The position numbers and the translations under genes were made by a program. Of a stretch of 49,298 nt of DNA, positions 6,726-49,245 are shown in pieces. Source of the stretch: Escherichia phage BrunoManser. A model generated the notes under the pieces. It was not told the DNA's origin, did no database searches, and was given only the letters and a program-made list of their open reading frames with translations. The first letter of the stretch is position 1; each line of letters begins with the position of its first letter. The stretch is taken from the sequence record MZ501053; one strand, given 5' to 3'.

Positions 6726-6746
6726 CATAAAAACAGTTTGACGCTT

Positions 6747-6761
6747 TAACAAAAAGTGCTA
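6747..6761. promoter_or_regulatory. palindrome TAACA-N5-TGCTA (module family)
   Basis: TTTAACAAAAAGTGCTA in leader of major capsid gene, followed by hairpin. Confidence 0.5.
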
Positions 6762-6764
6762 TCA

Positions 6765-10530: not shown

Positions 10531-10543
10531 TTTTCTGTAGAAT
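10515..10543 (+). promoter_or_regulatory. sigma70-like promoter (TTGCTT-N17-TGTAGAAT, extended -10) overlapping terminator
   Basis: -35 sits in the 3' arm of the terminator hairpin; extended -10 TGTAGAAT. Confidence 0.45.
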
Positions 10544-10572
10544 CATCGTATCAAATCGGCTCGACGCTGTTT

Positions 10573-10587
10573 TAGCAATTCGTGCTA
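10573..10587. promoter_or_regulatory. palindrome TAGCA-N5-TGCTA
   Basis: TTTTAGCAATTCGTGCTA between promoter -10 (10538) and RBS of tail chaperone gene, i.e. in the transcribed leader. Confidence 0.55.
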
Positions 10588-10609
10588 TTACCTATCAGGA
10601 GAATCAACA

Positions 10610-16538: not shown

Positions 16539-16574
16539 GACTTCACCGATAAATAGCACAAAAGGTTAAACATC

Positions 16575-21289: not shown

Positions 21290-21444
21290 TCTAAAACCCT
21301 CCATTCGTTTGTTTATCGGCATTATACACGTTTGCGATCGTGAGTGTTGGCAAAAAGTGCGATCCATAAAAATGACGCTGTAATCCTATTACATGTAATT
21401 CGTGTAACTTTTGTCTATCATTTTCATGATTACAGAATCCGCAC

Positions 21445-22908: not shown

Positions 22909-22912
22909 TAAA

Positions 22913-22927
22913 CAGCACAAATAGCTA
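22913..22927. promoter_or_regulatory. degenerate palindrome cAGCA-N5-AGCTA + hairpin (GATATAAT in loop)
   Basis: AGCACAAATAGCTAAAC then GACGGGGTGATATAATTCATCCCGT then leader and RBS of erf. Confidence 0.5.
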
Positions 22928-22990
22928 AACATATGAAAGACGGGGTGATATAATTCATCCCGTAAACAAAACCAATCAGGAGATAACAGA

Positions 22991-25922: not shown

Positions 25923-25942
25923 TTGTAAATCCTCCAAGTAAA

Positions 25943-25957
25943 TAGCACTATTTGCTA
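25943..25957. promoter_or_regulatory. palindrome TAGCA-N5-TGCTA
   Basis: AATAGCACTATTTGCTAAA immediately upstream of RBS of the - strand tail fibre gene. Confidence 0.5.
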
Positions 25958-26002
25958 AACCATGATTTTAGCATTGTGTTATGCGGGCGGCAATAGGGCA
26001 AT

Positions 26003-26967: not shown

Positions 26968-27026
26968 CTTCTTTGCTCCAATAAAAAACGCGTAACGAGA
27001 TTCTAACCCGCTACGCGTTCATTGTT

Positions 27027-27473
27027 TTAGCTATTTGTGCTTTGCGTCGTTTCGTCTTTTCGAACAACGCGCATTAACTTGCGATTCTTGCAACGCTTTT
27101 CTAAGCACTTGCCGTTACTGTCGAACTTCAGGTCGAAGCGAAGCCAGCTTGCGCGATAACCTTTACAGCCTTGCCGACGGTATGCACGATGCGCCGCCTC
27201 CGCGCCTTGCCATGAAATCATACCGCGAACTTTCCATTCGTTCACGTTCTGATTGGTCACTTTCAGCGCCTTAGCTGTTGCGGACGGCGAACCGTAATAT
27301 TCGATCAATGCGTCAAGTCTGGCTCGTAGTCCGGCGCGAACTTCATCCTTCAGGATGTAGAATCCGCATCGCTGGCGGGGCTTGATATCTTTCCCGCGTC
27401 GTGTACCATTATTCCCGTTGATGTGGCGACGGTCGATTTCACCAGTTGATTCTGCAATACGTTTCATCGTCAT
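27027..27473 (-). CDS. putative HTH DNA-binding protein (Cro/YdaS-like)
   Basis: Start set to internal ATG with RBS GAGG (MTMKRIAE...); helix-turn-helix-like segment GSPSATAKALKVTNQNVNEWK; Arg/Lys-rich. Confidence 0.4.
   Translation of the reverse strand: MTMKRIAESTGEIDRRHINGNNGTRRGKDIKPRQRCGFYILKDEVRAGLRARLDALIEYYGSPSATAKALKVTNQNVNEWKVRGMISWQGAEAAHRAYRRQGCKGYRASWLRFDLKFDSNGKCLEKRCKNRKLMRVVRKDETTQSTNS
27028..27042. promoter_or_regulatory. degenerate palindrome + hairpin module upstream of primase (- strand)
   Basis: Minus-strand reading AGCACAAATAGCTAAAAC then AACGCGTA...GTTAGAAT...TACGCGTT hairpin then RBS GGAG. Confidence 0.45.
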
Positions 27474-27566
27474 AGTAAATTCCTCAATAGCATTTTTTGT
27501 TAAAACTGTTTCGTCAATGCGTGTATTATACAATCAACGAAGCATCTACGCAAAGGATTAAAATTC

Positions 27567-29618: not shown

Positions 29619-30040
29619 TTACCGACAAAGGCGACTATTTAGAATTCTACGAACGCGATCCAAGCGACACGCGGAAGGAGGTTAATCACCAGATCGAAAG
29701 CACATCGTTCGTTAAGGTTCGGCATCCTGAATTACTGTTCTGGCATAGCGTGAACGAGAACGAAAAAAGCAAGGTTACGGCGATGATAGATCAGCAATCG
29801 GGATTATTGAAAGGCGTTAGCGACTTCGTGTTCCTGATTGGTTTTAATCACCGCTACCCGTTCGGCGCTATCGAATTGAAGCGCGTCAATAAGTCGGGCA
29901 AAGGGAAGGCGTCACCAGTCAGCGACGAACAGAAATCTTTCTTGCGCAAGGTTCGCGAACGTGGAGGATTCGCCGCCGTTGCTTATGGCGTAGAGCAATT
30001 TAAATTAGCTGTCGCGGAAATGCTAAAACAGCACGAATAG
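29615..30040 (+). CDS. VRR-NUC domain nuclease
   Basis: 141 aa; PD-(D/E)XK-like core (GVSDFVFL...GAIELKR) typical of VRR-NUC proteins; overlaps helicase stop. Confidence 0.5.
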   Translation: MITDKGDYLEFYERDPSDTRKEVNHQIESTSFVKVRHPELLFWHSVNENEKSKVTAMIDQQSGLLKGVSDFVFLIGFNHRYPFGAIELKRVNKSGKGKASPVSDEQKSFLRKVRERGGFAAVAYGVEQFKLAVAEMLKQHE

Positions 30041-30043
30041 CTA
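30029..30043. promoter_or_regulatory. degenerate palindrome + hairpin module
   Basis: CAGCACGAATAGCTAAAAC, hairpin GCCGGAATGGAATCCGGTATTATC, leader CATCGAAACAACGGAGG. Confidence 0.45.
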
Positions 30044-30100
30044 AAACAGCCGGAATGGAATCCGGTATTATCTATTCATCGAAACAACGGAGGCGCATAA

Positions 30101-31051: not shown

Positions 31052-31278
31052 TGAAACTTTTACTTATCGGCGAGAATAAATTATTCCTCCTTTATCGTGC
31101 AATGGTGTGCGCGGCGATTGAAAGCGCAATGGTCGAAGAAATGGTAGACGGCGAATTGTGGGAGTTTACAGAATGCCTTGATATGTCATTCGAAGAAATC
31201 AAGAATCAGCCGTTCGAGTTGTGGGATTCAATCATACAAAACGACTTGCGCGAATTCTTAGGAATTAGATCGCACTAA
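31051..31278 (+). CDS. hypothetical protein
   Basis: 75 aa, coupled to methyltransferase stop; palindrome module overlaps its stop. Confidence 0.4.
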   Translation: MKLLLIGENKLFLLYRAMVCAAIESAMVEEMVDGELWEFTECLDMSFEEIKNQPFELWDSIIQNDLREFLGIRSH

Positions 31279-31284
31279 TTGCTA
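31270..31284. promoter_or_regulatory. palindrome-like tCGCA-N5-TGCTA + hairpin module
   Basis: CGCACTAATTGCTAAAC, hairpin CCCGGCGAAAGTCGGGTATTATTATTTCATCAAAACGAAA. Confidence 0.45.
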
Positions 31285-31343
31285 AACGTACCCGGCGAAA
31301 GTCGGGTATTATTATTTCATCAAAACGAAACTGAGAAAAGCAA

Positions 31344-31538: not shown

Positions 31539-31803
31539 AGAATCTGGAAAGCGGGCAGTGTGGGAACACGCAAAAGAAACAGGGCTTGCGGACGGGATCG
31601 CACTAATTGCTAAGTATTTCGACATTAAGGACGTTAGTATTATTGGCAACGGGAAGATAACATATATTGAAGAGCTTCCCCGCAAATGTCACCGCGTCCC
31701 GGCTGTTCCCGGTCTGGAATATTACCGGGAAGAAGGCAAGCGCATAATGAAGGAATTTAAGGAGAGTCAGAAGAATGGAAAGACTACCCGGCTTAAACGG
31801 TAA
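31531..31803 (+). CDS. hypothetical protein
   Basis: 90 aa, overlapping neighbours. Confidence 0.4.
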   Translation: MIKESGKRAVWEHAKETGLADGIALIAKYFDIKDVSIIGNGKITYIEELPRKCHRVPAVPGLEYYREEGKRIMKEFKESQKNGKTTRLKR

Positions 31804-33239: not shown

Positions 33240-33240
33240 A

Positions 33241-33255
33241 TAGCACGAATAGCTA
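33241..33255. promoter_or_regulatory. palindrome TAGCA-N5-AGCTA + hairpin module
   Basis: TAGCACGAATAGCTAAAG, hairpin GGGGTAACGAGTTATAGTTACCCC, leader CATCAAAACAAAGGAG. Confidence 0.55.
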
Positions 33256-33313
33256 AAGACAAACGCGGGGTAACGAGTTATAGTTACCCCATCAAAACAA
33301 AGGAGATAGACAA

Positions 33314-35107: not shown

Positions 35108-35165
35108 TTTGCTTTCTCCTTTTGTTTCGATGAAATGATAATACCCGGAATTAACCGGGTAGTTT

Positions 35166-35180
35166 TAACAAAAAGTGCTA
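35166..35180. promoter_or_regulatory. palindrome module (leftward orientation)
   Basis: Minus-strand TAGCACTTTTTGTTAAAAC + CCCGGTTAATTCCGGGTATTATC hairpin + leader CATCGAAACAAAAGGAG before ORF 34859-35107. Confidence 0.55.
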
Positions 35181-35381
35181 TTGGTATCGCGTCACGCTCA
35201 ATATGCAAACGCCGTCGCCGTCCGCCAGATTGTGACACGTTTCACCGGACGCCCGCATCGAAGACAACAGAAGAGACATTAGCGCCGTGTTGAATTCATC
35301 TTCTGAAAGCTGGTGCGTTGCGCAAAATTCGACGCTCCGATCTATCAACATTTCGACCTTTCCCGAACAAATCTTCATCAC
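35178..35381 (-). CDS. hypothetical protein (start uncertain)
   Basis: 67-aa ORF overlapping 3' end of 35296-35700 by 86 bp in another frame; its stop TAG lies in a palindrome module; real start may be a later ATG. Confidence 0.25.
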   Translation of the reverse strand: MMKICSGKVEMLIDRSVEFCATHQLSEDEFNTALMSLLLSSMRASGETCHNLADGDGVCILSVTRYQ

Positions 35382-37272: not shown

Positions 37273-37328
37273 TCTTAGATCTCCTTATTGAGCGTGGTAG
37301 ATTATACCCCGCCCATACTACACGCTTT

Positions 37329-37343
37329 TAGCAATAAGTGCTA
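37329..37343. promoter_or_regulatory. palindrome module (leftward orientation)
   Basis: Minus-strand TAGCACTTATTGCTAAAAG + ...GGGGTATAATC... + RBS AAGGAG before 521-aa gene. Confidence 0.55.
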
Positions 37344-37347
37344 TTTG

Positions 37348-37764: not shown

Positions 37765-37846
37765 CGCATCATTCCTTCTGATTGGTTATCTTGAATAAGG
37801 CCACTTTATCAAATGACCTTACGGCAATATTAACAAATCGTGCCAT

Positions 37847-38284: not shown

Positions 38285-38341
38285 TGTTATTTCTCCTTTG
38301 TTTCGATGGGGTAACTATATCAAGATACCACGTTGTTGTTT

Positions 38342-38356
38342 TAGCAATTTGTGCTA
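38342..38356. promoter_or_regulatory. palindrome module (leftward orientation)
   Basis: Minus-strand TAGCACAAATTGCTAAAAC + ...GATATAGTTACCCC + CATCGAAACAAAGGAG. Confidence 0.55.
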
Positions 38357-38509
38357 TTTGACACGATGCCCGGTAAATGGATAATGCGCTACGTCTGCGA
38401 CACTATATCGATCTGAAACAATCCAGCTACCATCTTCCATAAGGCGGCGAACATGTTGCCCCACGATCGAATACCATGCTTTCGTTTCGTGATTATAATA
38501 TCGAATCAT
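38354..38509 (-). CDS. hypothetical small protein (51 aa)
   Basis: Manual ORF; ATGA overlap with upstream stop; its TAG stop is the first half-site of palindrome 38342-38356. Confidence 0.3.
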   Translation of the reverse strand: MIRYYNHETKAWYSIVGQHVRRLMEDGSWIVSDRYSVADVAHYPFTGHRVK

Positions 38510-39738: not shown

Positions 39739-39800
39739 TTTTGTGATCCTCTTGTCTCGTTTCGATGGGGTAATGATGCCACACCACCCCGATTGTGTTT

Positions 39801-39815
39801 TAACAAAAAGTGCTA
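39801..39815. promoter_or_regulatory. palindrome module (leftward orientation)
   Basis: Minus-strand TAGCACTTTTTGTTAAAAC + GGGGTGGTGTGGCATCATTACCCC + CATCGAAACGAGACAAGAGGA. Confidence 0.5.
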
Positions 39816-39816
39816 T

Positions 39817-40432: not shown

Positions 40433-40489
40433 TGCTGTATCTCCTTCGTTTCGATGAAGCAACTATACCCGAACCACCCCGCCGATGTG

Positions 40490-40504
40490 TTGCAAAAAGT
40501 GCTA
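40490..40504. promoter_or_regulatory. palindrome module (leftward orientation), first gene of leftward operon
   Basis: Minus-strand TAGCACTTTTTGCAA + CGGGTATAGTTGCTTCATCGAAACGAAGGAG before ATG at 40432. Confidence 0.5.
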
Positions 40505-40585
40505 TTCCTGATCCGATACGATTATTCCTCGCTTTTGGAATAACTGGAATAATGAGTGATTACTCATGATTGCAAATGACAAGTT

Positions 40586-40629: not shown

Positions 40630-40685
40630 TGAAGCATTAAATTGGAGAGAGGTTATAGAGTGAAACGGTCTTCGCCACCAACTTT

Positions 40686-40700
40686 TAGCAATTCGTGCTA
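40686..40700. promoter_or_regulatory. palindrome TAGCA-ATTCG-TGCTA in divergent control region
   Basis: Perfect copy ACTTTTAGCAATTCGTGCTA with no adjacent long ORF. Confidence 0.45.
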
Positions 40701-40767
40701 CGTGTCTAAATTACGCTTGTAATCTTTGTCTAAAATTTGCTAGATTTGTCACTTAGACAAAATGATG

Positions 40768-40860
40768 AAAATTTGAGCAATCCTAAGAGCTGGCCGATTT
40801 AGCGCTAACTATATGATATATATAATAATAATAAGTTTTAAATTAGCTTTTATATAGTAG
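40768..40860 (+). repeat. AT-rich direct repeat, copy B
   Basis: AAAATTTGAGCAA...GCGCTAACT...ATATATATAATAATAATAAG...TTTTAAATTAGCTTTTATAT; same orientation as copy A, 19.3 kb away. Confidence 0.55.
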
Positions 40861-41053
40861 AAATACTGTTGTATATAGGGCGTGTCACTAATGTATAAGG
40901 TGTAAGGGTGAGATTCGGTATATTGAGGATTTCTGGTTATATATACAGTACATTAGGAGGCAGACCCATAAATATCTCTATAGGTGCTTACATCTAATAC
41001 ATCTTATACAGGGGCGATTACGTAGTTGTGACGCGCGTCCTTGCTGGATTGTG

Positions 41054-41082
41054 TTGTCTAAGGTAAAAATTTAAGATATTAT
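41054..41082 (+). promoter_or_regulatory. candidate sigma70 early promoter (TTGTCT-N17-TATTAT)
   Basis: In the divergent control region ~65 bp upstream of ATG at 41146. Confidence 0.4.
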
Positions 41083-41145
41083 TACGCGCTTATACAACGT
41101 GTAATCTTTGTCTAAGCTTGTCTAAAACAATCAGGAGAATCAACC

Positions 41146-41736
41146 ATGACTAAACTAGCATCATCAAATGAACCGAACATCGCCGCAATGCTTCGCCACA
41201 TCGTCACGCTGAAGATTCAGGCTGGCGAACGGGAATTCAGCTTCACCGAATTGCAAATGCTGATTGAAGCCGCCCGGTTGCAGTATGAGGAACACGGCGT
41301 CACCCGCACTGAAGATGAATTAGACGACGACGCGCGAGTCTTCCGGGATCAGTACAACGGCCTGTTGCGCCTGAAGATGAAATCGCCGTACATCGCGCCG
41401 ACTATCAAGCGCCACGTTGCGAAAGCTGGCTTTGATTGTGCGATCTCACTTAGCCGGGATGAAGACGACGAAATCTTAGTGTCTGTCACGCTGTCGGACG
41501 AACCGATCGAGAAGCCAGCCCGCACACGTAAGGCGAAAGCGGCTCCGGTTGTCCAGGGTGATTCTGTTCAATCTGGTGAGCATATCGACACGGTTCGATT
41601 TAATGCGCTGGCGTTATGGGTTCCAGACTTCACGAAGTACGACGACGAAGAGTTATCGACGGCAAGGCAATTGCTTGAAGAGTTTCGGAATCACGTCGAA
41701 GCCCTGAGAGGTAAAAGCGAAGAAATCGCAGAATAG
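41146..41736 (+). CDS. hypothetical acidic protein (first gene of rightward early operon)
   Basis: 196 aa; RBS CAGGAG; sigma70-like promoter ~70 bp upstream. Confidence 0.5.
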   Translation: MTKLASSNEPNIAAMLRHIVTLKIQAGEREFSFTELQMLIEAARLQYEEHGVTRTEDELDDDARVFRDQYNGLLRLKMKSPYIAPTIKRHVAKAGFDCAISLSRDEDDEILVSVTLSDEPIEKPARTRKAKAAPVVQGDSVQSGEHIDTVRFNALALWVPDFTKYDDEELSTARQLLEEFRNHVEALRGKSEEIAE

Positions 41737-41748
41737 CACGAATTGCTA
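41734..41748. promoter_or_regulatory. palindrome TAGCA-CGAAT-TGCTA + hairpin module
   Basis: Starts at TAG stop of ORF 41146-41736; GCCCGGCGCGGAGTCGGGCATAATG then CATCGACAACGAAAACAG. Confidence 0.55.
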
Positions 41749-41810
41749 AAACGCCCGGCGCGGAGTCGGGCATAATGCACACATCGACAACGAAAACAGA
41801 ACCTATCAGG

Positions 41811-42107
41811 ATGAACAACTTTACCCGCACTGAATTTCAACACGCCTTCGCCGTCAACGTTCAAGCGATGCAGGGCTATCAAAAGCGCTTTGTCGCATTC
41901 GTTACCGCGCTTGGATTCAAACAAGCCTACGAAGGCACTGTAGCGGCACGTAACGCGCGTTTCATGGCATGGATTGGCGAACGTAAGGCCGACTTCGTGA
42001 AAGCGCATGATGAGCATGTACAGCGTGATTATTGCACTGGATATTACCGCATCCTAAGCGATGAAGCGTACACCGATTTTATTGTGTCGGGCGAATGGAT
42101 TAAATAG
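41811..42107 (+). CDS. hypothetical protein
   Basis: Start set to ATG after the conserved leader CATCGACAACGAAAACAG; tool ORF starts at 41775. Confidence 0.4.
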   Translation: MNNFTRTEFQHAFAVNVQAMQGYQKRFVAFVTALGFKQAYEGTVAARNARFMAWIGERKADFVKAHDEHVQRDYCTGYYRILSDEAYTDFIVSGEWIK

Positions 42108-42119
42108 CACTTTTTGCTA
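42105..42119. promoter_or_regulatory. palindrome TAGCA-CTTTT-TGCTA + hairpin module
   Basis: Starts at TAG stop; CCCGGTCAAACGGATCGGGTACTATAAC then CATCAACAACGAACGGAG. Confidence 0.55.
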
Positions 42120-42178
42120 AAACCCGGTCAAACGGATCGGGTACTATAACCACATCAACAACGAACGGAGATACACCA

Positions 42179-42661
42179 ATGAAAATCGAAATCTTTTGCA
42201 GTGGCGGATACAAGGGCTTCACGACTAACCATTTCCCGATTGTGGTCGATGCGGTGGAAACTGAGCGCAACGGCGGCTATCACGTCAAAGTGTCGGATCT
42301 GGAAGCGTTAGGCGTATACGACAGCGCAATCGGACAACAGCCTACTGAAGAAAATGGCGGCGGCATTGACTATAACCCGGAAACAGGCGTCTTGTTCTTC
42401 ATGCATCACGAAGTAGAGATCGCGAAGTTCGGCAAAGTTAAGGTGCGCATTCTTGAAAGTGGCGACTACTTTTTCAAGCCGGAGCACAATCGCACATTCC
42501 CGGTTATCGTCAACGGTTATCGCCACGAATACCAGTTGCACACCGTTTCGATCATGGAGGCCGACGCGCGGGCAATTGGGATGTATGTAAACGGGTTCAA
42601 GCCTTCATTCTGTCTTGGGGGTCACAAGTATTACGGCGCTGAAGCAGAAATAATCCGATAG
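42179..42661 (+). CDS. hypothetical protein
   Basis: 160 aa; module, leader and RBS upstream. Confidence 0.5.
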   Translation: MKIEIFCSGGYKGFTTNHFPIVVDAVETERNGGYHVKVSDLEALGVYDSAIGQQPTEENGGGIDYNPETGVLFFMHHEVEIAKFGKVKVRILESGDYFFKPEHNRTFPVIVNGYRHEYQLHTVSIMEADARAIGMYVNGFKPSFCLGGHKYYGAEAEIIR

Positions 42662-42673
42662 CACTTTTTGTTA
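42659..42673. promoter_or_regulatory. palindrome TAGCA-CTTTT-TGTTA + hairpin module
   Basis: Starts at TAG stop; GGGCTTGCGATATAGTAAGCCC then CATCAACAACGAAACAGGAG. Confidence 0.55.
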
Positions 42674-42734
42674 AAACACGCATTCGGGCTTGCGATATAG
42701 TAAGCCCATCAACAACGAAACAGGAGTTACAATC

Positions 42735-43250
42735 ATGTTAAAAGAACAAGATATTACTTACCCGATCACTTTTATCTGTAACGGCGTAGGCCGCTTCACA
42801 TTCACCAGCCGCTATCGTGGTGTGAAGGAAGGCGTGGGCGATTATAACGGTAGCGTTATGCATTTCGTCGAGCAGCACAACCTACGCAATCCGAGCAATA
42901 ACCCGACGAAGGATTATTTTTACTACAACAAAGGTTCGATTCGTTCGGGGCATCGTTCGCTGACTGGTTCAATGTACGCTGCCGGAATGATTATCCACAA
43001 CGCAGCCGCTAGCTCCAGCGCTGCCGCAACATCTGGCGGGATCTGCAAAGTCGAACAAATGCCGCTAGGCGCGAAGTTGACAGGAGTCCGCATGGAGTCG
43101 GGCGAATGGGTGGATATTCTCGTTAAGCCTGTCCGAATCGAAGTTGACGGCGAAACGGTTACTTTCCTGTTGCACCATAGCTTCAAAAGCAAAGGATTCG
43201 CCGGGGAAGTTAGCATGAAACGCGGCACTACGATCAAATGGTCTGAATAG
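42735..43250 (+). CDS. hypothetical protein
   Basis: Start set to ATG after leader CATCAACAACGAAACAGGAG. Confidence 0.5.
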   Translation: MLKEQDITYPITFICNGVGRFTFTSRYRGVKEGVGDYNGSVMHFVEQHNLRNPSNNPTKDYFYYNKGSIRSGHRSLTGSMYAAGMIIHNAAASSSAAATSGGICKVEQMPLGAKLTGVRMESGEWVDILVKPVRIEVDGETVTFLLHHSFKSKGFAGEVSMKRGTTIKWSE

Positions 43251-43262
43251 CACGAATTGCTA
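43248..43262. promoter_or_regulatory. palindrome TAGCA-CGAAT-TGCTA + hairpin module
   Basis: Starts at TAG stop; AAGCCCATTTGTTATAGTGGGCTT then RBS CAGGAG. Confidence 0.55.
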
Positions 43263-43330
43263 AACCTTCCGCAAGCCCATTTGTTATAGTGGGCTTATTG
43301 AAGCAAGGCAACCAATCAGGAGATAACGAA

Positions 43331-43408
43331 ATGACGCCAATCGAAAAGGTATGCTGTCCGAATCACGGCGGTAGTGGAGCAAAGTCAACCTGTCCATTTT
43401 GCAAATAA
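43331..43408 (+). CDS. Cys-rich micro-protein (25 aa)
   Basis: Manual ORF MTPIEKVCCPNHGGSGAKSTCPFCK with strong RBS (CAGGAG, 8 nt spacing) immediately after a module. Confidence 0.3.
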   Translation: MTPIEKVCCPNHGGSGAKSTCPFCK

Positions 43409-43418
43409 GGATCGAGAA

Positions 43419-43712
43419 ATGAAAATCACCTTAACCGAACAATACTTCAGCGATAGCAATCCGAATCGCTACATTATCACCGAAGGCATGACGACCGAAA
43501 CCGAACTAAAAGTTAATCAGACTATCGGTTCGCTCGTTCTGGTAAGCGCGAAGGAGTTAGACCGGTTCGCGAAGCCCGAACATCGCCACTTAGCCGACCC
43601 GCTTTTCGAAGGTGGCGAAATGCCGGACTATCCGTTCTTAGAGGGTGAGTATCGGAAGGCTAATCCGTTCTCGTTCTGGAATAAACTTAAATCCGGGAAG
43701 CTATTCAAATGA
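43419..43712 (+). CDS. hypothetical protein
   Basis: Start set to ATG (MKITLTEQ...); tool ORF begins at upstream GTG inside the micro-ORF. Confidence 0.45.
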   Translation: MKITLTEQYFSDSNPNRYIITEGMTTETELKVNQTIGSLVLVSAKELDRFAKPEHRHLADPLFEGGEMPDYPFLEGEYRKANPFSFWNKLKSGKLFK

Positions 43713-43948
43713 TAATCGTCAACACGGAAACGGGCGAGGTAATGGAAAATTGCGTCGTACTGGACGACAAGCCGAAACGGACGCCGAAGGCGAAGTCCGG
43801 GACTTACAAGAAAGTCGTTTGCAAGGCTCCCGGATGCGGCAATACGTACGAAGCGAAGGTGTCGGATCTTAATCGCGGCTGGGGTATGACGTGCTGCAAA
43901 TCATGCGCCGCCGTAGTTCGCGAACTGAAGAAAAAAGGACGGTGGTAA
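43709..43948 (+). CDS. hypothetical zinc-ribbon protein
   Basis: 79 aa; CKAPGCG...CCKSC four-Cys arrangement. Confidence 0.45.
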   Translation: MIIVNTETGEVMENCVVLDDKPKRTPKAKSGTYKKVVCKAPGCGNTYEAKVSDLNRGWGMTCCKSCAAVVRELKKKGRW

Positions 43949-43949
43949 C

Positions 43950-44162
43950 ATGAAACGATTATCACAATGGGACATTGCAGGAAAGGCTGACGCTGTCGAG
44001 GCGCTATTGTGCGACATTCACCCAAGCGACAGGATCGAGATTATCGCGAGGGCAATGTACAGCATGAACAAATACCACGACGGCGGCACTACCGAAATGC
44101 ACACTTGCGGCTGTCACGATTGGGATTTGACGATGGATTACCGGGAGGTTGGGAAACGATGA
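43950..44162 (+). CDS. hypothetical protein
   Basis: 70 aa, Cys/His-rich C-terminus (HTCGCHDWD). Confidence 0.4.
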   Translation: MKRLSQWDIAGKADAVEALLCDIHPSDRIEIIARAMYSMNKYHDGGTTEMHTCGCHDWDLTMDYREVGKR

Positions 44163-44299
44163 AACTTGAAAGGCGTAACACTGTCGGCGTGGATATGCCG
44201 AACACGAAGGATAAGCGCAAAATTCGCCGGGCGGCGCGTAACATTTCGAAAGAACTGTATTCGTGCGGACAACTTGAGAAGTTAGCCCGCAGATTCTGA
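44159..44299 (+). CDS. hypothetical small basic protein (46 aa)
   Basis: ATGA overlap with upstream stop; in frame with tool ORF 44009-44299, whose upstream part overlaps the preceding gene. Confidence 0.35.
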   Translation: MKLERRNTVGVDMPNTKDKRKIRRAARNISKELYSCGQLEKLARRF

Positions 44300-44300
44300 A

Positions 44301-44315
44301 TAGCACTAATTGCTA
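44301..44315. promoter_or_regulatory. palindrome TAGCA-CTAAT-TGCTA + hairpin module
   Basis: GGGGCTATGCCATAATAGCCC then ACACAAAACGAAAGGAG. Confidence 0.55.
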
Positions 44316-44374
44316 AAAAACATCATCGGGGCTATGCCATAATAGCCCTACACAAAACGAAAGGAGACACATCA

Positions 44375-44689
44375 ATGAAAACTAAATGCGTTTCGAACAA
44401 CACGAATAAGTTTACCATAGGCGGATTTTACGACGTTGTGCGCGTCGGCGAAAAAGACTTCATCGCAGCAGACGACAAAGGCCGGGCGCGTCCATGTATG
44501 CCGATTCACGGCGGCACGTTCTACCGCGTAACCCTCGCAGCCGATCGGGGCGCTGTATTCCAATTGCTGAAGCCGCAAAGCGAAATCGACGAAGCGAAAA
44601 AGCCGTGGTATCGCCGCAAAGAAAACATTGTCCCGGCAATCTTCACCGCCGTGATCCTGTTGGTCGCTACTGTCGCTTACGTGGCGTAA
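44375..44689 (+). CDS. hypothetical tail-anchored membrane protein
   Basis: 104 aa with C-terminal hydrophobic segment IVPAIFTAVILLVATVAYVA; module and RBS upstream. Confidence 0.45.
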   Translation: MKTKCVSNNTNKFTIGGFYDVVRVGEKDFIAADDKGRARPCMPIHGGTFYRVTLAADRGAVFQLLKPQSEIDEAKKPWYRRKENIVPAIFTAVILLVATVAYVA

Positions 44690-44741
44690 TTTTAACGGGG
44701 AATCAGTCGCTGATTGGTTCCCCATGACTTGAGGTTTTACG

Positions 44742-44864
44742 ATGATTGACGCCGGACACTGGAATGAACCGCCTGACTATACGCCTTTATGGTTCCTTTC
44801 CGGGATTTTGGGATTGCTGATTGTACTTAACGTTTTGAAGGGGGCTTTATGGATGGTGATGTGA
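44742..44864 (+). CDS. hypothetical membrane peptide (40 aa)
   Basis: Manual ORF after hairpin and RBS GAGG; hydrophobic core LWFLSGILGLLIVLNVL. Confidence 0.3.
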   Translation: MIDAGHWNEPPDYTPLWFLSGILGLLIVLNVLKGALWMVM

Positions 44865-45067
44865 ACTACGACGATTTAGCGGCGGACGCGGTAGCAGGTA
44901 TGCACCCAAATTCGAAGCGTAGCGCCCACTATCACGGTTTTAAGTATTCACCCTTGCGATTGCTTGACGCGATTTTGCGTCGTCCAGAAGTGATTACAGC
45001 GCGTTTAAGCTGGCATCGTTTTGATAATTTTTGCGTGACTATCGAAGTGAATAGCACTAAAAGCTAA
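44849..45067 (+). CDS. hypothetical protein
   Basis: 72-aa ORF; start overlaps preceding peptide ORF; stop overlaps a module. Confidence 0.35.
   Translation: MDGDVNYDDLAADAVAGMHPNSKRSAHYHGFKYSPLRLLDAILRRPEVITARLSWHRFDNFCVTIEVNSTKS
45052..45066. promoter_or_regulatory. palindrome-like TAGCA-CTAAA-AGCTA module
   Basis: Overlaps stop of ORF 44849-45067; downstream CTATAATG and leader CACCAACAAACGGAG. Confidence 0.45.
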
Positions 45068-45124
45068 AACCTATAATGTGAAATTCGCTATGATTCCCCT
45101 GCACCAACAAACGGAGATTCAACA

Positions 45125-45571
45125 ATGAACAAACTTATCGTGTGCATTCAGGGTGAGGCGGACGGCTTCAAGATGGGCGAAACCGGGCTTTACGGTCACG
45201 AAACCGAAATCAATCCGTACCGGGAATACATTCACACCGACGCGATTATTTGCAAGCCGGGCGATCTGAATCTGATTATGAAGCGCCTTACCCGTTATCA
45301 CTATCAAGTGTACGGCGGGACAGCTACCTATCTGGACGTTACCGCAATCCGCCGCAAGATGAACCGCGCATTCTACAAAGAAGCCATGAACACTTACGGG
45401 ATGTGCAAGCGTGACGCGAAGAAATGGTCGCGGGCTATGGCGGACGGCTACTTCTTCAAATCTGGCTACCCGATCAGCGAGCTAATCGAAACGATGCGCA
45501 TCGACTACGAAAGCGACTTTTCGCAAGCCAGCTTCGACAGCTACGTTATTGAAGAAATTAGCTACTGGTAA
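45125..45571 (+). CDS. hypothetical protein
   Basis: 148 aa; RBS ACGGAG; modules on both sides. Confidence 0.5.
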   Translation: MNKLIVCIQGEADGFKMGETGLYGHETEINPYREYIHTDAIICKPGDLNLIMKRLTRYHYQVYGGTATYLDVTAIRRKMNRAFYKEAMNTYGMCKRDAKKWSRAMADGYFFKSGYPISELIETMRIDYESDFSQASFDSYVIEEISYW

Positions 45572-45572
45572 A

Positions 45573-45587
45573 TAGCACGATTTGCTA
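45573..45587. promoter_or_regulatory. palindrome TAGCA-CGATT-TGCTA + hairpin module
   Basis: GAGGGTATTGCTATATATAGTGTCCTC then leader and RBS AAGGAG. Confidence 0.55.
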
Positions 45588-45657
45588 AAGACTTTCCGCG
45601 AGGGTATTGCTATATATAGTGTCCTCATTGAAAGCGAACAACAAAGGAGTAATACCG

Positions 45658-45720
45658 ATGCGCCAAAACTTCGAAAAGATTGTCGGCAAGCCGAAGAAGT
45701 TCGACGAAGGTTACAAGTGA
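45658..45720 (+). CDS. micro-ORF (20 aa) with strong RBS
   Basis: MRQNFEKIVGKPKKFDEGYK preceded by AAGGAG; first ORF after module at 45573. Confidence 0.25.
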   Translation: MRQNFEKIVGKPKKFDEGYK

Positions 45721-45779
45721 GTTAAGAAGACGCAGAAACGCGGCAAAAATCAGGCTGAAAAATGGGAAGGGTTACGATA

Positions 45780-46322
45780 ATGAAGATTAACGCATACGGA
45801 AGAGAATTTCGCACTAACGCGCCGTCCGGGATGATTTGTATTTTTGATTACGACGGTACTTTGTCAGACGGAACGCACCGCTTGCACCTGCTACCGAAAA
45901 CCGATCTTCACTTAACTGAAAGTTGGAGCGAGTTTAACCGGGCGGCAATCTTCGACACACCGATTACCAACACGATCGCGGTAATGAATGCGATGTATGC
46001 AGCCGGGCATTGTGTAATCATCCTAACCGGGCGAAGCGATGAAGTCGAAAAGGAGTCGCGCGAATGGCTGGCGAACCACAACGCGAAATATGATTTCCTG
46101 ATCATGCGCCGCCACGACGACAACCGGAAGGATACGGTAATCAAAGAAGAGATTTTGCGCGAAATCGGGTTGCATCGCATTTTAGCGGCGTGGGATGATA
46201 GCCCTTCAGTTATTCCACACTTTAGGAATATTGGAATAACAACCTATGCCGTGACCGACTACGGCGACAATGTACATTCACACCTGAAATCACACGGAGT
46301 AGACACACTATGCAAAAAGTAA
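45780..46322 (+). CDS. HAD-superfamily phosphatase (DxDGT motif)
   Basis: N-terminal ICIFDYDGTLSDG matches HAD motif I (DxDGT), as in polynucleotide 3'-phosphatases/nucleotidases; start chosen at ATG with AAGGG RBS. Confidence 0.5.
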   Translation: MKINAYGREFRTNAPSGMICIFDYDGTLSDGTHRLHLLPKTDLHLTESWSEFNRAAIFDTPITNTIAVMNAMYAAGHCVIILTGRSDEVEKESREWLANHNAKYDFLIMRRHDDNRKDTVIKEEILREIGLHRILAAWDDSPSVIPHFRNIGITTYAVTDYGDNVHSHLKSHGVDTLCKK

Positions 46323-46888
46323 TTATTCTTAACGGCTGTCCGGGCATTGGCAAAGATACGATCGGTTGTGTTATCGCTGATATGAACCAGTTAAAAGGCG
46401 TTCGCACGTTGAGCTTTAAAGCGCCGATGTTTGAAATTGCCCGCGCCATTTTGGGCGACGCGAATTACGATTACTTCTTATTCTTGTATAATGACCGACT
46501 TCATAAAGAGAAGCCAGATTCTGTCCTGAATGGTAAAAGCCCGCGCGAGTTCATGATCTGGATTAGCGAAGCAATCATTAAACCTGAGTTCGGAAATGAT
46601 TATTTCGGGCGGCGCATGGTGGAGGCGATTAAGGCAAGCGATACGCCAGCCGTTATTACTGACGGCGGATTCACTGAAGAGACAATCGCACTAATCGAAT
46701 CTGGTATTCAGGTTCATGTTTGCCGACTTCACAGGGGAGGATTCACGTTCGAAGGTGATTCCAGAAGCTATCTTCATTTACCTGTCGGCTGGCATGGCGT
46801 TAACGGGTACACCGAAGAAGACTTCACGTTGCGCGACGGCGACCCGGATTACACCGCAAGCGTCATCACAGGCCGCTATTTGAAATAG
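46310..46888 (+). CDS. P-loop kinase (dNMP kinase / polynucleotide kinase-like)
   Basis: N-terminal Walker A ILNGCPGIGKDT resembles T4 gp1-type dNMP kinase P-loop (GxxxSGKDT); overlaps stop of phosphatase gene. Confidence 0.5.
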   Translation: MQKVIILNGCPGIGKDTIGCVIADMNQLKGVRTLSFKAPMFEIARAILGDANYDYFLFLYNDRLHKEKPDSVLNGKSPREFMIWISEAIIKPEFGNDYFGRRMVEAIKASDTPAVITDGGFTEETIALIESGIQVHVCRLHRGGFTFEGDSRSYLHLPVGWHGVNGYTEEDFTLRDGDPDYTASVITGRYLK

Positions 46889-46900
46889 CACGAATTGCTA
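46886..46900. promoter_or_regulatory. palindrome TAGCA-CGAAT-TGCTA + hairpin module
   Basis: Starts at TAG stop of kinase gene; GGGGTAAGCTGTTATAGTTACCCC then CATCAACAACC. Confidence 0.6.
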
Positions 46901-46961
46901 AAACCGGATCGGGGTAAGCTGTTATAGTTACCCCATCAACAACCAATCATGGAATTACGCT

Positions 46962-47159
46962 ATGAAAATGAAGGCTTTATTTATCTTCGGCTGGGCTTGC
47001 ATCGCATTATCGATTGCGCTTCAGCCTTCCGGCTTCGTTGTTGCCTCCGCAATGTTCCTTGCGTTCTTAGGTGGTCATTTGTTGGGCTGGCGAAATGGTC
47101 GATTAGATGCCGCCGATATGCTTCGAAACGAATTCCGCAAGGGGAGTAAATTACTGTGA
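46962..47159 (+). CDS. hypothetical membrane protein
   Basis: 65 aa with two hydrophobic segments; preferred over overlapping ORF 46949-47149. Confidence 0.45.
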   Translation: MKMKALFIFGWACIALSIALQPSGFVVASAMFLAFLGGHLLGWRNGRLDAADMLRNEFRKGSKLL

Positions 47160-47362
47160 CCGAGCAGAAAAAGATCCGAATCCGCACAACGTATAACGGT
47201 TCGCCGTGGATTAAGGCAACTAAGATTTACGACGCGGAGTTATGCGAAGAAGGTTCGTTTAAAGGTTGTTACAGCTTCAAAGGCGAATTGGGCGCACCAT
47301 GTTACACGCGGCTAAAACATAGCGTACATCTTGCCGGTCAAGATTGGGAGATTGTCGAATAG
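47156..47362 (+). CDS. hypothetical protein
   Basis: 68-aa ORF coupled to previous; probable GTG start. Confidence 0.4.
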   Translation: MTEQKKIRIRTTYNGSPWIKATKIYDAELCEEGSFKGCYSFKGELGAPCYTRLKHSVHLAGQDWEIVE

Positions 47363-47374
47363 CACGAATTGCTA
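47360..47374. promoter_or_regulatory. palindrome TAGCA-CGAAT-TGCTA + hairpin module
   Basis: Starts at TAG stop; AAGGGCATTTGTTAGAATGTCCTT then GAAACAAAGCGAGGAAACG. Confidence 0.55.
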
Positions 47375-47433
47375 AACTTTCCGCAAGGGCATTTGTTAGA
47401 ATGTCCTTATTGAAACAAAGCGAGGAAACGAAA

Positions 47434-47625
47434 ATGATTTGCACCGGAAAAGTTTACTTTGACAAACACGGCAACGAATACGAATTGATTTTCACCGACG
47501 ACGGCGATTTCATGTATGACGGTTGCGATCAGTTTATCGAAGTACGCGAATCAGATTACAGCGAAGGCGCATATTATGATCGCAAAGATGTGCGTCGATT
47601 CTTTACCAAGGAGAAACCGGAATGA
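47434..47625 (+). CDS. hypothetical protein
   Basis: Start set to ATG (MICTGKVYF...) after leader and RBS GAGG. Confidence 0.45.
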   Translation: MICTGKVYFDKHGNEYELIFTDDGDFMYDGCDQFIEVRESDYSEGAYYDRKDVRRFFTKEKPE

Positions 47626-47996
47626 TTCAGATTAACCTTTCAGAGAAGCAAGCCCGCGAATTCTGCGACTTCTGTTTTTCGGTAACTGGCGTACTTGATA
47701 CGCCTATCGCCCGCGAAGTGTTCAAGATCGTAGAGCGTCAATTGCTACCGCATTCAAGCGAACAGGCCGCTTTAGCCGTGTGGCGTTCGGAACGTGTTTT
47801 ACCGAACCTGATCGAAGCGTGGCGACGCAAGAATGAAACGGCGGAAAAGTCATTCGGTCAAGCTGAAATGTTCCGCGATATCATGCCAGCCGAGGCGATG
47901 AAGTATTCGGTTAATGCTGGCGGCGCACTTTATAACGAGATCGTCGGCAAACGCGGAAAGGTTGTATCGGTTAACGGTCGTTCCGGTCGCTTTTAG
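47622..47996 (+). CDS. hypothetical protein
   Basis: 124 aa, overlaps upstream stop. Confidence 0.5.
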   Translation: MIQINLSEKQAREFCDFCFSVTGVLDTPIAREVFKIVERQLLPHSSEQAALAVWRSERVLPNLIEAWRRKNETAEKSFGQAEMFRDIMPAEAMKYSVNAGGALYNEIVGKRGKVVSVNGRSGRF

Positions 47997-48008
47997 CACG
48001 AATTGCTA
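47994..48008. promoter_or_regulatory. palindrome TAGCA-CGAAT-TGCTA + hairpin module
   Basis: Starts at TAG stop; GCGGGGTTGCGATATAGTGACCC then AATCAAAACAAACGGAG. Confidence 0.6.
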
Positions 48009-48067
48009 AACCATTAACGCGGGGTTGCGATATAGTGACCCAATCAAAACAAACGGAGTAAGTAAGA

Positions 48068-48301
48068 ATGTTCGGACTAACTGAAGCGCACTTGAATATT
48101 GTTAAGCGTCGTTGCCGGGAAATGTCTTCCGAGTTGAAAGCGGCTATCGAAGGCGGCGCGAAATACGATCACGTCGCAAAGCGCATAATCGACGAGCACC
48201 ACAAGAAGGACGGAGTTCACACCCTTGTGACGCGACAACAATTCATATGGTTAGCCGGGTATTTTAACGGGCGTTTTGGAAACAAATTTGACTACGAATA
48301 G
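48068..48301 (+). CDS. hypothetical protein
   Basis: 77 aa; module and RBS ACGGAG upstream. Confidence 0.45.
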   Translation: MFGLTEAHLNIVKRRCREMSSELKAAIEGGAKYDHVAKRIIDEHHKKDGVHTLVTRQQFIWLAGYFNGRFGNKFDYE

Positions 48302-48312
48302 GAGATCTAACA

Positions 48313-48516
48313 ATGTCACGCTTCCCGAAGAAAAACGATCAATTACGTTGTATTACGTCACGAAATTGCGACACCTTTTCTCATGGTTGTTTGTACGACG
48401 TGGAGAAGGTAAGCAAGGCTAAACGTCTGGTCTATGTGTACGGCGACGATGGAGACATTCACGAAATCGACTTCCCTCAGGATATAACGAAAGGTCATTT
48501 TGAAATTAACGATTGA
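48313..48516 (+). CDS. hypothetical protein
   Basis: 67 aa; RBS AGGAG. Confidence 0.45.
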   Translation: MSRFPKKNDQLRCITSRNCDTFSHGCLYDVEKVSKAKRLVYVYGDDGDIHEIDFPQDITKGHFEIND

Positions 48517-48841: not shown

Positions 48842-48845
48842 GAAG

Positions 48846-48995: not shown

Positions 48996-48997
48996 CA

Positions 48998-49228: not shown

Positions 49229-49245
49229 AAAATCAGGTTGAAAAC

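Follow-up and report, generated by a model that had tools for sequence, protein, structure and literature searches.

To our knowledge, T1-like phages encode neither an RNA polymerase nor a sigma factor, and how they are transcribed is a question that is decades old. The genome of Escherichia phage BrunoManser (sequence record MZ501053; 49,298 nucleotides, the whole of which is called the window here) poses this question in a concrete form: a short repeat stands in front of one small gene after another, ten times between positions 41734 and 48008 and many more times elsewhere. The original prediction, made from the letters of the sequence, had described about 25 modules built on the palindrome TAGCA-N5-TGCTA, each continuing into a hairpin, a -10-like hexamer, a leader and a ribosome-binding site, and it had offered two readings, a dimeric phage-encoded regulator acting at many promoters or an RNA stem-loop within polycistronic mRNAs. 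What is the repeated element, what would read it, and what is the hairpin for? In the interpretation favored here, the modules are probably a family of class II marbox promoter cassettes, each of which would combine a promoter with a hairpin for the 3' end of the upstream cistron and a leader.

The window covers all or nearly all of the genome of a T1-like siphophage (Drexlerviridae, Tunavirinae, Sertoctavirus). Over the module region, its identity to Citrobacter phage IME-JL8 and to Escherichia phage SRT8 is about 95%. Its map is permuted relative to that of T1: 41146-49298 (+) corresponds to the T1 left-end block of small early genes, 35296-40462 (-) to the T1 right-end block, and 40570-41146 to the junction of the genome ends. 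Modules in the sense orientation precede essentially all early units, on both arms, as well as the middle units (recombination, primase, helicase, methylase, lysis-proximal). Within the late structural operon, no sense-oriented module was found by a scan with the oriented core of the repeat or in the resulting list of modules.

A one-directional repeat

Across the window, TAGCANNNNNTGCTA (TAGCA-N5-TGCTA) has 13 exact matches, compared with 0.01 expected from shuffled sequence, and 23 when one mismatch is allowed (0.93 expected); the oriented core TAGCACNNNTTGCTAAA occurs 28 times at up to two mismatches (0.58 expected). There are 29 copies in all, about 19 of them elsewhere in the genome and ten in 41734-48008, where they start at 41734, 42105, 42659, 43248, 44301, 45052, 45573, 46886, 47360 and 47994. 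Thus, the predicted size of the family, its concentration in the rightward early operon and its enrichment over shuffled sequence were all borne out.

The predicted symmetry was not. The real unit is an asymmetric 20-mer, A(T/C)AGCAC-nnW-TnG-YT-AAAAC (consensus ATAGCAC-nnW-TTG-YT-AAAAC; with its flanks, aATAGCAC-nnn-TTGCTAAAAc), and its central bases appear as CGAAT or, on the opposite strand, as ATTCG, depending on which way the next gene runs. On both strands, the direction of the box tracks that of the downstream gene: for 20 of the 27 top boxes an open reading frame (ORF) starts 62-92 nt downstream in the direction of the box, and for 4 one does so in the opposite direction. Furthermore, the variation is not alike in the two arms: TGTTA and AGCTA are frequent on the right, TAACA never appears on the left, and no change in one arm is compensated in the other. 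The "palindrome" is incidental, a misreading of a one-directional asymmetric element, and with uncompensated arms, asymmetric flanks and a fixed orientation the idea of a symmetric site for a dimer has to be given up.

An ungapped column profile extends the conservation downstream, with G at -14 in 23 of 27 copies, T/A/t/a/a/T at columns 37-42, and an A at the presumptive +1, seven bases past the hexamer, in 20 of 27, followed by an A-rich leader and GGAG. The observation that the TAG of the first half-site serves as the stop codon of the upstream gene holds for seven of the ten modules of 41734-48008, and in one more the stop is the TAA within GCTAAA. When five T1-like genomes are pooled, the upstream ORF ends within the box in 48 of 77 cases. 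With its TAG and its TAA, the box stops two of the three reading frames, which is why upstream genes usually terminate within it.

Earlier descriptions of the repeat

Whether this architecture had already been described was a question that the original prediction left to be answered, and for the repeat itself, in TLS, T1 and Rtp, the answer is yes. In the re-annotation of phage TLS in 2024, a 21-nt direct repeat, aaATAGCACnnnTTGnTAAAA, was reported at 21 places. Its copies point in the direction of transcription, stand about 76 nt ahead of start codons and form A, T and G subgroups; similar repeats were stated for T1, Rtp and Rogue1 (PMC11447400). Only three sigma70-like promoters were found in TLS, and the repeat was proposed to be a stoperator, an enhancer-binding site or an UP element (PMC11447400). 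In its consensus, logo, orientation and central-triplet subgroups (GAA, TTT, AAA), the TLS repeat is the same element as the BrunoManser box. The distance also matches, that from the T of TAGCAC to the start codon being 49 plus a median of 25 nt here, and the TLS copies were found again in the TLS genome in this analysis. The TLS paper deals with the 21-mer alone and does not tie it to a -10 at 18 bp, a hairpin, a +1, a leader or a marbox (PMC11447400). Thus, what is known is the repeat itself, and what is new is its reading as a marbox with -10, hairpin and leader. In the literature searched, within the searchable library, no paper linked the marbox to a phage or rob to Drexlerviridae.

The box matches the host marbox

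Judged by sequence match, the box is the consensus binding site of MarA, SoxS and Rob, the monomeric AraC-family activators of the host. Marbox consensus sequences derived from chromatin immunoprecipitation sequencing (ChIP-seq) have been given as GCAHWWWWTGYYAAA (PMC6900184) and gcactaattgctaaa (PMC5684230). The boxes at 31272 and 44303 are identical to gcactaattgctaaa at 15 of 15 positions, and the one at 25945 has the sequence of the MarA-bound yeeF site of E. coli. MarA binds identical 15-mers in E. coli, both in vivo and, at 0.3 uM, in vitro (PMC5684230). The marbox pattern AYNGCACNNWNNRYYAAAY has 24 matches in BrunoManser at up to one mismatch, with 0.88 expected. The mismatch to this consensus, AYnGCACnnWnnRYYAAAYn, is nearly always at the last constrained position. 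A scan with GCAHWWWWTGYYAAA gave 15-26 matches per T1-like genome, with about one expected, and 25 of the 29 modules have at most one mismatch to it.

For a position weight matrix (PWM), the 33 sites bound by MarA in E. coli H10407 in ChIP-seq (PMC5684230) were the sole input, and the top-quartile score of those sites themselves was taken as the cut-off. Sites at or above it number 27 in BrunoManser (0.30 expected), 24 in T1, 19 in TLS, 19 in Rtp and 17 in Klebsiella phage Shelby. As controls, T7 has 1 and an unrelated Vibrio siphophage has 0; the latter had been fetched as a distant T1-like phage, proved to have only the terminase in common, and therefore served as a negative control. By this matrix, the phage boxes outscore most natural host sites. 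When the E. coli and phage matrices are slid along each other, the mean column correlation reaches 0.93 at a single offset, in the forward direction, compared with 0.47 at the next best, and the same base is preferred at 14 of 15 positions. In addition, where the phage copies differ among themselves, they do so within the degeneracy that the host consensus allows: the central triplet always ends in A or T, C and T alternate in TTG(C/T)TA, and T and A alternate at a box position that the older marbox consensus leaves free.

As a separate observation, four of the five strain-specific MarA targets found by ChIP-seq in E. coli H10407 lie in prophage remnants (PMC5684230, Table 1), and marboxes in phage-derived DNA may be more common than has been recognized.

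Promoter geometry

At the class II promoters served by MarA, SoxS, Rob or RamA, a forward marbox lies over the -35 region, clustered near -41, and a canonical -10 is present without a recognizable -35 (PMC12052159, PMC10268841, PMC8811837). The forward orientation is used here as defined in PMC6900184 and by the micF sequence. In E. coli micF, a class II promoter for which structures with RNA polymerase are available, the fetched sequence has ACAGCACTGAATGTCAAAAC followed by 18 bp, TAGAAT, 7 nt and +1. In the phage modules, the -10-like hexamer that had been placed about 22 bp past the palindrome, often after TG and too far away for a -35, is indeed there; measured from the end of the 20-bp box, the gap is 18 bp, the same as in micF.

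This spacing was examined in a pooled set of 99 boxes from BrunoManser, T1, TLS, Rtp and Shelby, a proper hexamer being defined as nAnnnT with at least four of six matches to TATAAT. Such a hexamer lies at a gap of exactly 18 bp in 73 of the 99, at 17 bp in 9 and at 19 bp in 2. The pooled -10 elements have A-11 in 73 of 84, T-7 in 76, G-14 in 69 and A at +1 in 70, and T-12 is also seen in the logo. The hexamers are TATAGT, TATAAT, CATAAT or TATTAT, usually after G-14 or TG, and a C-rich 6-nt discriminator comes next. With the hexamer set at -12 to -7, the box occupies -50 to -31, with its center at -40.5, and +1 is predicted from the hexamer. A standard sigma70 -35/-10 scan picks up no module, and there is no -35 at 16-18 bp. 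The leader is uniform, A/C-rich and unstructured, with the consensus A-t-C-g-A-A-A-C..GGAG, which agrees with the conserved leader and ribosome-binding site noted originally, and the start codon lies a median of 25 nt past +1. Comparison across related phages, which had been proposed as a check, shows the module layout in T1, TLS, Rtp and a Klebsiella Webervirus as well.

In sequence, orientation, position and possession of a -10 without a -35, the modules agree with class II promoters, the transcription start site being predicted. Like micF, fumC and lpxC P2, they have a forward, asymmetric 20-bp box centered near -41, a canonical -10 and no -35. They differ from the host promoters in their number, about 25 per 49 kb in a virulent phage, and in that nearly all are near consensus, whereas host sites are degenerate. 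Unlike the host promoters, they also encode an RNA hairpin between box and +1, lay the box over the upstream stop codon, and share a uniform leader.

Other readings of the same bases were considered and rejected. As a sigma70 -35, TTGCTA would have a spacer of 22 bp, TTG is changed to TAG in five copies, and the -35/-10 scan finds no module. For a sigma54 -24/-12 element (TGGCAC-N5-TTGCW, in which GG, GC and the spacing do not vary), the phage TAGCAC-N3-TTGCT is 2 bp short and has AG for GG, and the conserved downstream -10 and +1 would be left unexplained. The UP element suggested in the TLS paper does not fit, as the box is not an A/T tract and specific G and C positions are invariant. Finally, by inspection, the leader CATCAACAACGAA lacks the TTR part of an integration host factor site (WATCAANNNNTTR).

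The embedded hairpin

In the 35 nt from the end of the box to +4, the mean minimum free energy is -10.4 kcal/mol and the mean z is -2.7 against shuffles, with z below -1.5 in 74%. The hairpin comes in two layouts. One has its 5' arm at about -24 to -17 and uses the discriminator as its 3' arm, with the extended -10 and the -10 in the loop between them (for instance, GGGGTAA...TTACCCC). The other is confined to the spacer and frequently has a GAAA loop. Both stop at or before about +4. Consequently, RNAs initiated at a module are without the hairpin, and only read-through RNA carries it. micF is without such a hairpin, and so the hairpin is a phage addition.

Internal non-Watson-Crick pairs are of the G.U type in 14 cases and of the A.C type in 1 (p = 0.001), and this excess points to selection on the sense RNA rather than on the DNA or the antisense strand. 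Among 16 in-register modules from four genera, 96.5% of cells are paired and 7 of 9 pairs have changes on both sides; because the set was chosen for a stem in register, the percentage paired is inflated, whereas the compensatory changes are not. Covariation scores 0.72, compared with 0.28 for shuffles (0 of 500 reaching that value) and 0.07-0.27 with the partner shifted. The suggestion of an RNA stem-loop therefore survives in part, for this second, variable hairpin, whose covariation indicates that it acts at the RNA level, and not for the palindrome.

It had also been noted that few of the hairpins have a U-tract and that they are not ordinary terminators. A terminator scan of 40400-48300 agrees with this, finding three terminator-like sites, none of them at a module, and the module hairpins there are without a U-tract. 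The exception lies before the primase gene, at 27020-26986 (-), where a full intrinsic terminator (14 bp and a T run) carries the -10 TAGAAT in its loop; no other module has the full terminator form, and nowhere is the sharing of bases by terminator and promoter clearer. Rfam 15 gave no match at or above the gathering score in the whole stretch, and other annotators have labeled the hairpins "rho-independent terminators". Most likely, the hairpin forms a protected or partly terminated 3' end of the upstream cistron.

The discriminator (-6 to -1) is C-rich on the non-template strand, where CCCC often immediately precedes +1; this composition follows from its being the hairpin's 3' arm. C-rich discriminators give short-lived open complexes that are sensitive to guanosine tetraphosphate (ppGpp)/DksA and to supercoiling; such a discriminator could tie phage transcription to the growth state of the host.

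A model for the cassettes

In the model proposed, each cassette would have three parts. The first would be an activator-dependent sigma70 promoter, in which the box at -50 to -31 stands in for the -35. MarA, SoxS or Rob (RamA in Klebsiella, Citrobacter and Salmonella) would sit on the box and contact and recruit RNA polymerase, as at micF, with a predicted start at the conserved A after the C-rich discriminator. The second would be the RNA hairpin encoded between box and +1, serving as a 3'-end protector, a weak terminator of the upstream cistron, or both. The third would be a leader of about 25 nt with a GGAG ribosome-binding site. Rob is constitutively abundant, and because it is made constitutively it would be the likely default activator and the likely one for immediate-early use, with MarA and SoxS (or RamA) providing a boost under drug or oxidative stress. 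The hosts of the family met in this analysis are all Enterobacterales, carriers of activators of the MarA/SoxS/Rob type.

The sequence match, the orientation, the spacing, the absence of a -35, the covariation of the hairpin, the conservation across the family and the breakpoints at boxes described below are direct observations. From them we infer protein binding, activator dependence, the exact start sites and the role of the hairpin; of these steps, the identity of the activator is the weakest link.

Several points weigh against the model. The phage box is tighter than the host consensus (A at position 3 in 24 of 27, T at position 11, AA just upstream), so that a second reader of the same DNA beside the host activators is possible. 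T1-like phages grow vigorously on unstressed laboratory strains, which makes a strict dependence on MarA, SoxS or Rob uncertain, and many modules have a G-14 or a TG extended -10 that could give activator-independent activity. Class II activation can be modest, RamA acting about twofold at micF (PMC8811837). No paper in the literature searched mapped start sites in Drexlerviridae, and both +1 and the center at -40.5 are predicted from the -10. In addition, a DNA-binding protein outside any recognizable family could be hidden among the many small uncharacterized phage proteins.

Alternative explanations

The foremost alternative is that the box is read by a phage-encoded protein, whether the Cro-like helix-turn-helix (HTH) protein at 27030-27533, an uncharacterized early protein or an injected protein. 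In that case the HTH protein, a homologue of T1 gp23, would be an activator or a shut-off repressor, and the likeness to a marbox would be a coincidence or a matter of competition. Such a reader would account for a box that is tighter than the host consensus, even at positions free in the marbox, and in which A at position 3 (24 of 27) and the upstream AA make the TAGCA/TGCTA symmetry; an HTH regulator is conserved in all T1-like phages examined, and most early proteins belong to no known family. We nevertheless consider it unlikely. Two matches at 15 of 15 positions, a correlation of 0.93 at one offset, and a micF-like orientation and 18-bp gap are hard to credit to coincidence, and the asymmetric, uncompensated variation of the arms argues against a symmetric dimer. 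Moreover, the box stands before early genes at both genome ends, where a phage-made factor could start the cascade only if it were injected. The HTH protein itself (27030-27533, -; homologue of T1 gp23, Rtp52 and TLS gp57), which the original prediction had put forward as a candidate regulator, has a weak Cro/YdaS-like match under the Pfam threshold and no tie to the box.

Searches for a phage homologue of AraC or MarA were likewise negative. With an approximate MarA query, phmmer and tblastn gave E > 1, and no AraC-type family was among the best 25 of the 52 Pfam families found for 82 ORFs or in the ten early proteins scanned singly. The same best 25 listed no transcription factor except the weak Cro-like match, MotA and AsiA not having been searched by name. 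What stands of the comparison with T4 MotA boxes is therefore the logic of an activator box at about 25 promoters; the dimer and the phage origin of the factor are not supported, given the match to the host marbox and the failure to detect an AraC-like protein. As in T4 middle promoters, a phage-wide upstream box replaces the -35 and a good -10 is kept. The MotA box (TGCTTtA), however, is centered near -30 and needs phage MotA and AsiA, whereas the box here is centered at -40.5 and matches a host activator site. The middle and late promoters of phage Mu that depend on Mor and C also have a -10 without a -35 and are served by a small phage-encoded dimer at about -43, on dyad-symmetric sites; the present modules share the -10 without a -35 and a putative upstream activator site, but their site is asymmetric and matches a host monomer.

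In a second alternative, the boxes would be mainly negative or decoy elements, acting as orientation-dependent roadblocks like those of mycobacteriophage L5 or as a sponge of about 25 consensus sites per genome copy that draws MarA, SoxS and Rob off host genes, while the extended -10 promoters act alone. The analogy with stoperators comes from the TLS authors (PMC11447400). Like the L5 stoperators, the boxes are many copies of a short, asymmetric, oriented site, often between genes (PMC11447400). Some lie in antisense orientation in the late operon or have no usable -10 (40701, 25942, 16553, 6762), TG or G-14 is present in many modules, and the boxes score above most host sites, as a decoy would. 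This reading is nonetheless quite improbable. The 18-bp gap is kept in 73 of 99 boxes across four genera, and it is a promoter element, not a roadblock or a decoy, that would need it. L5 stoperators bind the prophage repressor, block elongation and have no fixed distance to a -10, whereas T1-like phages are virulent and lack a repressor-immunity system. A sponge effect, furthermore, could coexist with activation and need not replace it.

A third alternative takes the modules chiefly as recombination linkers, with a secondary promoter role, like the PeSLs (promoter-early stem-loops) of T4-type phages RB49 and phi1, which are stop-to-ATG cassettes between small early genes (PMC2839356, PMC4122927). 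Homology blocks shared with IME-JL8 or T1 do begin or end within a few bases of boxes (39821, 41731/41750, 44300, 37345 and 38357), the IME-JL8 block at 44300 starting at the box found there, and in the early regions the modules are often the sole sequence in common with T1, as module-only matches of 55-90 bp. As in the PeSLs, whose linker role has been shown in T4-type phages (PMC2839356), a stem-loop on upstream transcripts is joined to a promoter for the next gene, and the whole is a linker for modular shuffling. In PeSLs, however, the sigma70 promoter is strong and of the ordinary kind, including a -35 and an AT-rich stretch, and termination has been shown for the stem-loop (GGGG...CCCC), which stands apart from it; the phage module has an activator box for the -35, and its hairpin lies inside the promoter (-30 to -1), mostly without a U-tract. 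Thus, the linker role is shared, and the sigma70 -35 and the effective upstream terminator are absent. Homology patches need no fixed orientation, rigid 18-bp gap, conserved +1 or RNA hairpin, and a primary linker function is accordingly very improbable; exchange more plausibly follows from the conservation of the cassettes than accounts for it. In this secondary role, the cassettes serve as homology patches for the exchange of gene blocks between T1-like phages.

Finally, almost no weight can be given to the idea that the palindrome itself works in polycistronic mRNA as a stem-loop operator or a processing site. It would lie in read-through RNA directly past the stop codon, and its common TGTTA variant would keep a G.U pair. 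However, CAGCA, TCGCA, AAGCA and TGGCA in the left arm never have a matching change opposite, AGCTA, which is frequent, disrupts the inner pair, the flanks and center are asymmetric and there is no Rfam match; the second hairpin, in contrast, covaries as RNA.

Modules of the rightward early block

The ten modules of this block, all on the plus strand, are as follows.

41733..41810 (+): box ATAGCACGAATTGCTAAAAC at 41733-41752; -10 CATAAT at 41771-41776; predicted +1 A at 41783; ATG at 41811; 18.7 bits; the upstream stop is the box TAG.
42104..42178 (+): box at 42104-42123; -10 TACTAT at 42142-42147; predicted +1 A at 42154; ATG at 42179; 17.9 bits; TAG stop in box.
42658..42734 (+): box at 42658-42677; -10 TATAGT at 42696-42701, in the hairpin loop; predicted +1 A at 42708; ATG at 42735; 17.7 bits; TAG stop in box.
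43247..43330 (+): box at 43247-43266; TGtTATAGT with -10 at 43285-43290; hairpin AAGCCCA/TGGGCTT; predicted +1 A at 43297; ATG at 43331; 90% identical to T1 3535-3613, though the flanking genes differ.
44300..44374 (+): box at 44300-44319 with GCACTAATTGCTAAA (consensus marbox, 15/15); -10 CATAAT at 44338-44343; predicted +1 A at 44350; ATG at 44375; 19.8 bits.
45051..45124 (+): box at 45051-45070 (TAAAAGCTA variant); -10 TATGAT at 45089-45094; weak hairpin; ATG at 45125; 18.0 bits; the upstream stop is the box TAA.
45572..45658 (+): box at 45572-45591; TATATATAGT run; best hexamer TATAGT at 45615-45620, at a gap of 23 bp (outlier); 18.1 bits.
46885..46948 (+): box at 46885-46904; TGtTATAGT with -10 at 46923-46928; hairpin GGGGTAA/TTACCCC; predicted +1 A at 46935; ATG at 46949; similarity to many T1-like phages in the module only.
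47359..47433 (+): box at 47359-47378; TGtTAGAAT with -10 at 47397-47402 (the hexamer of E. coli micF); predicted +1 A at 47409; ATG at 47434.
47993..48067 (+): box at 47993-48012; -10 TATAGT at 48031-48036; predicted +1 A at 48043; ATG at 48068; TAG stop in box.

In the module at 45572, the hexamer lies at 23 bp rather than 18 because of the TATATATAGT run, and this module may be weakened or drifting. A very short ORF follows it (21 codons, ATG at 45659).

Modules elsewhere in the genome

On the plus strand, the modules outside this block are the following.

22912..22990 (+), before the ERF-type recombination gene: box at 22912-22931; TGaTATAAT at a 17-bp gap; ATG at 22991; 16.8 bits.
27487..27566 (+), before the helicase gene: box at 27487-27506; -10 TATTAT at 27524-27529 (gap 17); predicted +1 A at 27536; GTG at 27567; no hairpin.
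30028..30100 (+): box at 30028-30047; -10 TATTAT at 30066-30071; predicted +1 A at 30078; ATG at 30101.
31269..31343 (+): box at 31269-31288 with GCACTAATTGCTAAA (15/15); spacer hairpin with a GAAA loop; -10 TATTAT at 31307-31312; predicted +1 A at 31319; ATG at 31344; 19.8 bits.
33240..33313 (+): box at 33240-33259; -10 TATAGT at 33279-33284 (gap 19); hairpin GGGGTAAC/GTTACCCC; predicted +1 A at 33291; ATG at 33314.

Those on the minus strand are given next.

21305..21363 (-), degenerate: box at 21363-21344 (ATCGCAC..TTGCCAAC); -10 TATAAT at 21326-21321 (gap 17); 14.9 bits.
26968..27043 (-), before the primase gene: box at 27043-27024; -10 TAGAAT at 27005-27000, in the terminator loop; ATG at 26967.
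35108..35181 (-): box at 35181-35162; spacer hairpin; -10 TATTAT at 35143-35138; predicted +1 A at 35131; ATG at 35107.
37273..37344 (-): box at 37344-37325; -10 TATAAT at 37306-37301; ATG at 37272; 18.5 bits; a T1 homology block ends at 37345.
37765..37846 (-), degenerate: box at 37846-37827 (ATGGCAC..TTGTTAAT); TGaTAAAGT; ATG at 37764; 14.7 bits.
38285..38357 (-): box at 38357-38338; TGaTATAGT with -10 at 38319-38314; predicted +1 A at 38307; ATG at 38284; a T1 homology block ends at 38357.
39739..39816 (-): box at 39816-39797; -10 CATCAT at 39778-39773; hairpin GGGGTGG/TTACCCC; predicted +1 A at 39766; ATG at 39738; an IME-JL8 block ends at 39821.
40433..40505 (-): box at 40505-40486 (3' part degenerate, TTGCAACA); -10 TATAGT at 40467-40462; predicted +1 A at 40455; ATG at 40432.

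Boxes that stand apart from this layout are listed last.

40682..40701 (-): box without a recognizable -10, at the genome-end junction, directed toward the leftward early operon; 18.7 bits.
6743..6762 (-): antisense box in the late operon, between the decoration and major capsid genes; TGtTATGGT at 18 bp; kept in T1 (15083-) and TLS (15039-).
10538..10588 (-): antisense box in the late operon, after the major tail protein gene; TGaTACGAT at 18 bp; A at the predicted +1 (10538); kept in T1 (18847-).
16553..16572 (+): box without a -10, abutting the ATG (16575) of the J-like tail fiber gene; kept in TLS (DR8, 24906).
25942..25961 (+): orphan box, GCACTATTTGCTAAA, equal to the E. coli yeeF MarA site; antisense to both neighbors; poor -10 TATGCG; 19.2 bits; no counterpart among the T1 matches.
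31597..31616 (+): intragenic copy, ATCGCACTAATTGCTAAGTA; TAGTAT at 18 bp; no ORF start downstream.

From their sequence, the antisense boxes at 6743-6762 and 10538-10588 would make antisense RNAs or cause transcriptional interference against late genes. The box at 16553-16572, which has no room for a -10, may be a relic, a roadblock or part of a ribosome-binding site.

At 27474-27566, two promoters stand face to face. On the minus strand, TTGCGT (27553-27548), 17 nt and TATAAT (27530-27525) precede the Cro-like HTH gene (ATG at 27473), and this sigma70-like -10 overlaps the -10 TATTAT (27524-27529) of the helicase marbox module. The pair could be a switch between expression of the regulator and of the replication gene. 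An equivalent promoter, P57, is annotated in TLS.

There are five copies of a second repeat, TTGTCTAAR (40726+, 40752-, 41054+, 41108+ and 41118+; 0.64 expected). It is confined to the genome-end junction (40700-41130); the near-identical IME-JL8 has it too, but T1, TLS and Rtp lack it. The first rightward gene is preceded by a sigma70-like promoter, TTGTCT-17-TATTAT (41054-41082), whose -35-like part is one of these copies. The repeats could act as operators for a phage regulator, or they could belong to the packaging region.

Implications for T1-like phages

The marbox reading names a likely protein (Rob, MarA, SoxS or RamA), start sites and the mutations that would be expected to kill activity. 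A broader and more tentative proposal, one that we hold to be possible rather than probable, is that T1-like phages have wired nearly all of their early and middle genes to MarA, SoxS, Rob and RamA through about 25 marboxes, while at the same time decoying these activators. If so, phage expression would be set by the antibiotic, bile or oxidative-stress response and would be strongest in cells in which that response is on. In addition, replicating phage DNA, with more strong marboxes than the whole host chromosome, would soak up the activators and collapse the efflux and porin response. A virulent phage family would then be both dependent on a host stress transcription factor and a decoy for it.

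If the marbox reading is correct, a very common family of enteric phages, with therapy candidates against E. coli, Klebsiella, Shigella and Citrobacter among its members, would be tied to the regulators of intrinsic antibiotic resistance. This would bear on phage-antibiotic synergy and on the limits of host range to Enterobacterales, and it could explain the behavior of these phages in the bile-rich gut. The cassettes would also supply a set of natural, compact, near-consensus marbox promoters for synthetic biology. Beside the T4-type phages with their PeSLs, the T1-like phages would be a second lineage in which promoter-plus-hairpin cassettes serve as gene-shuffling linkers.

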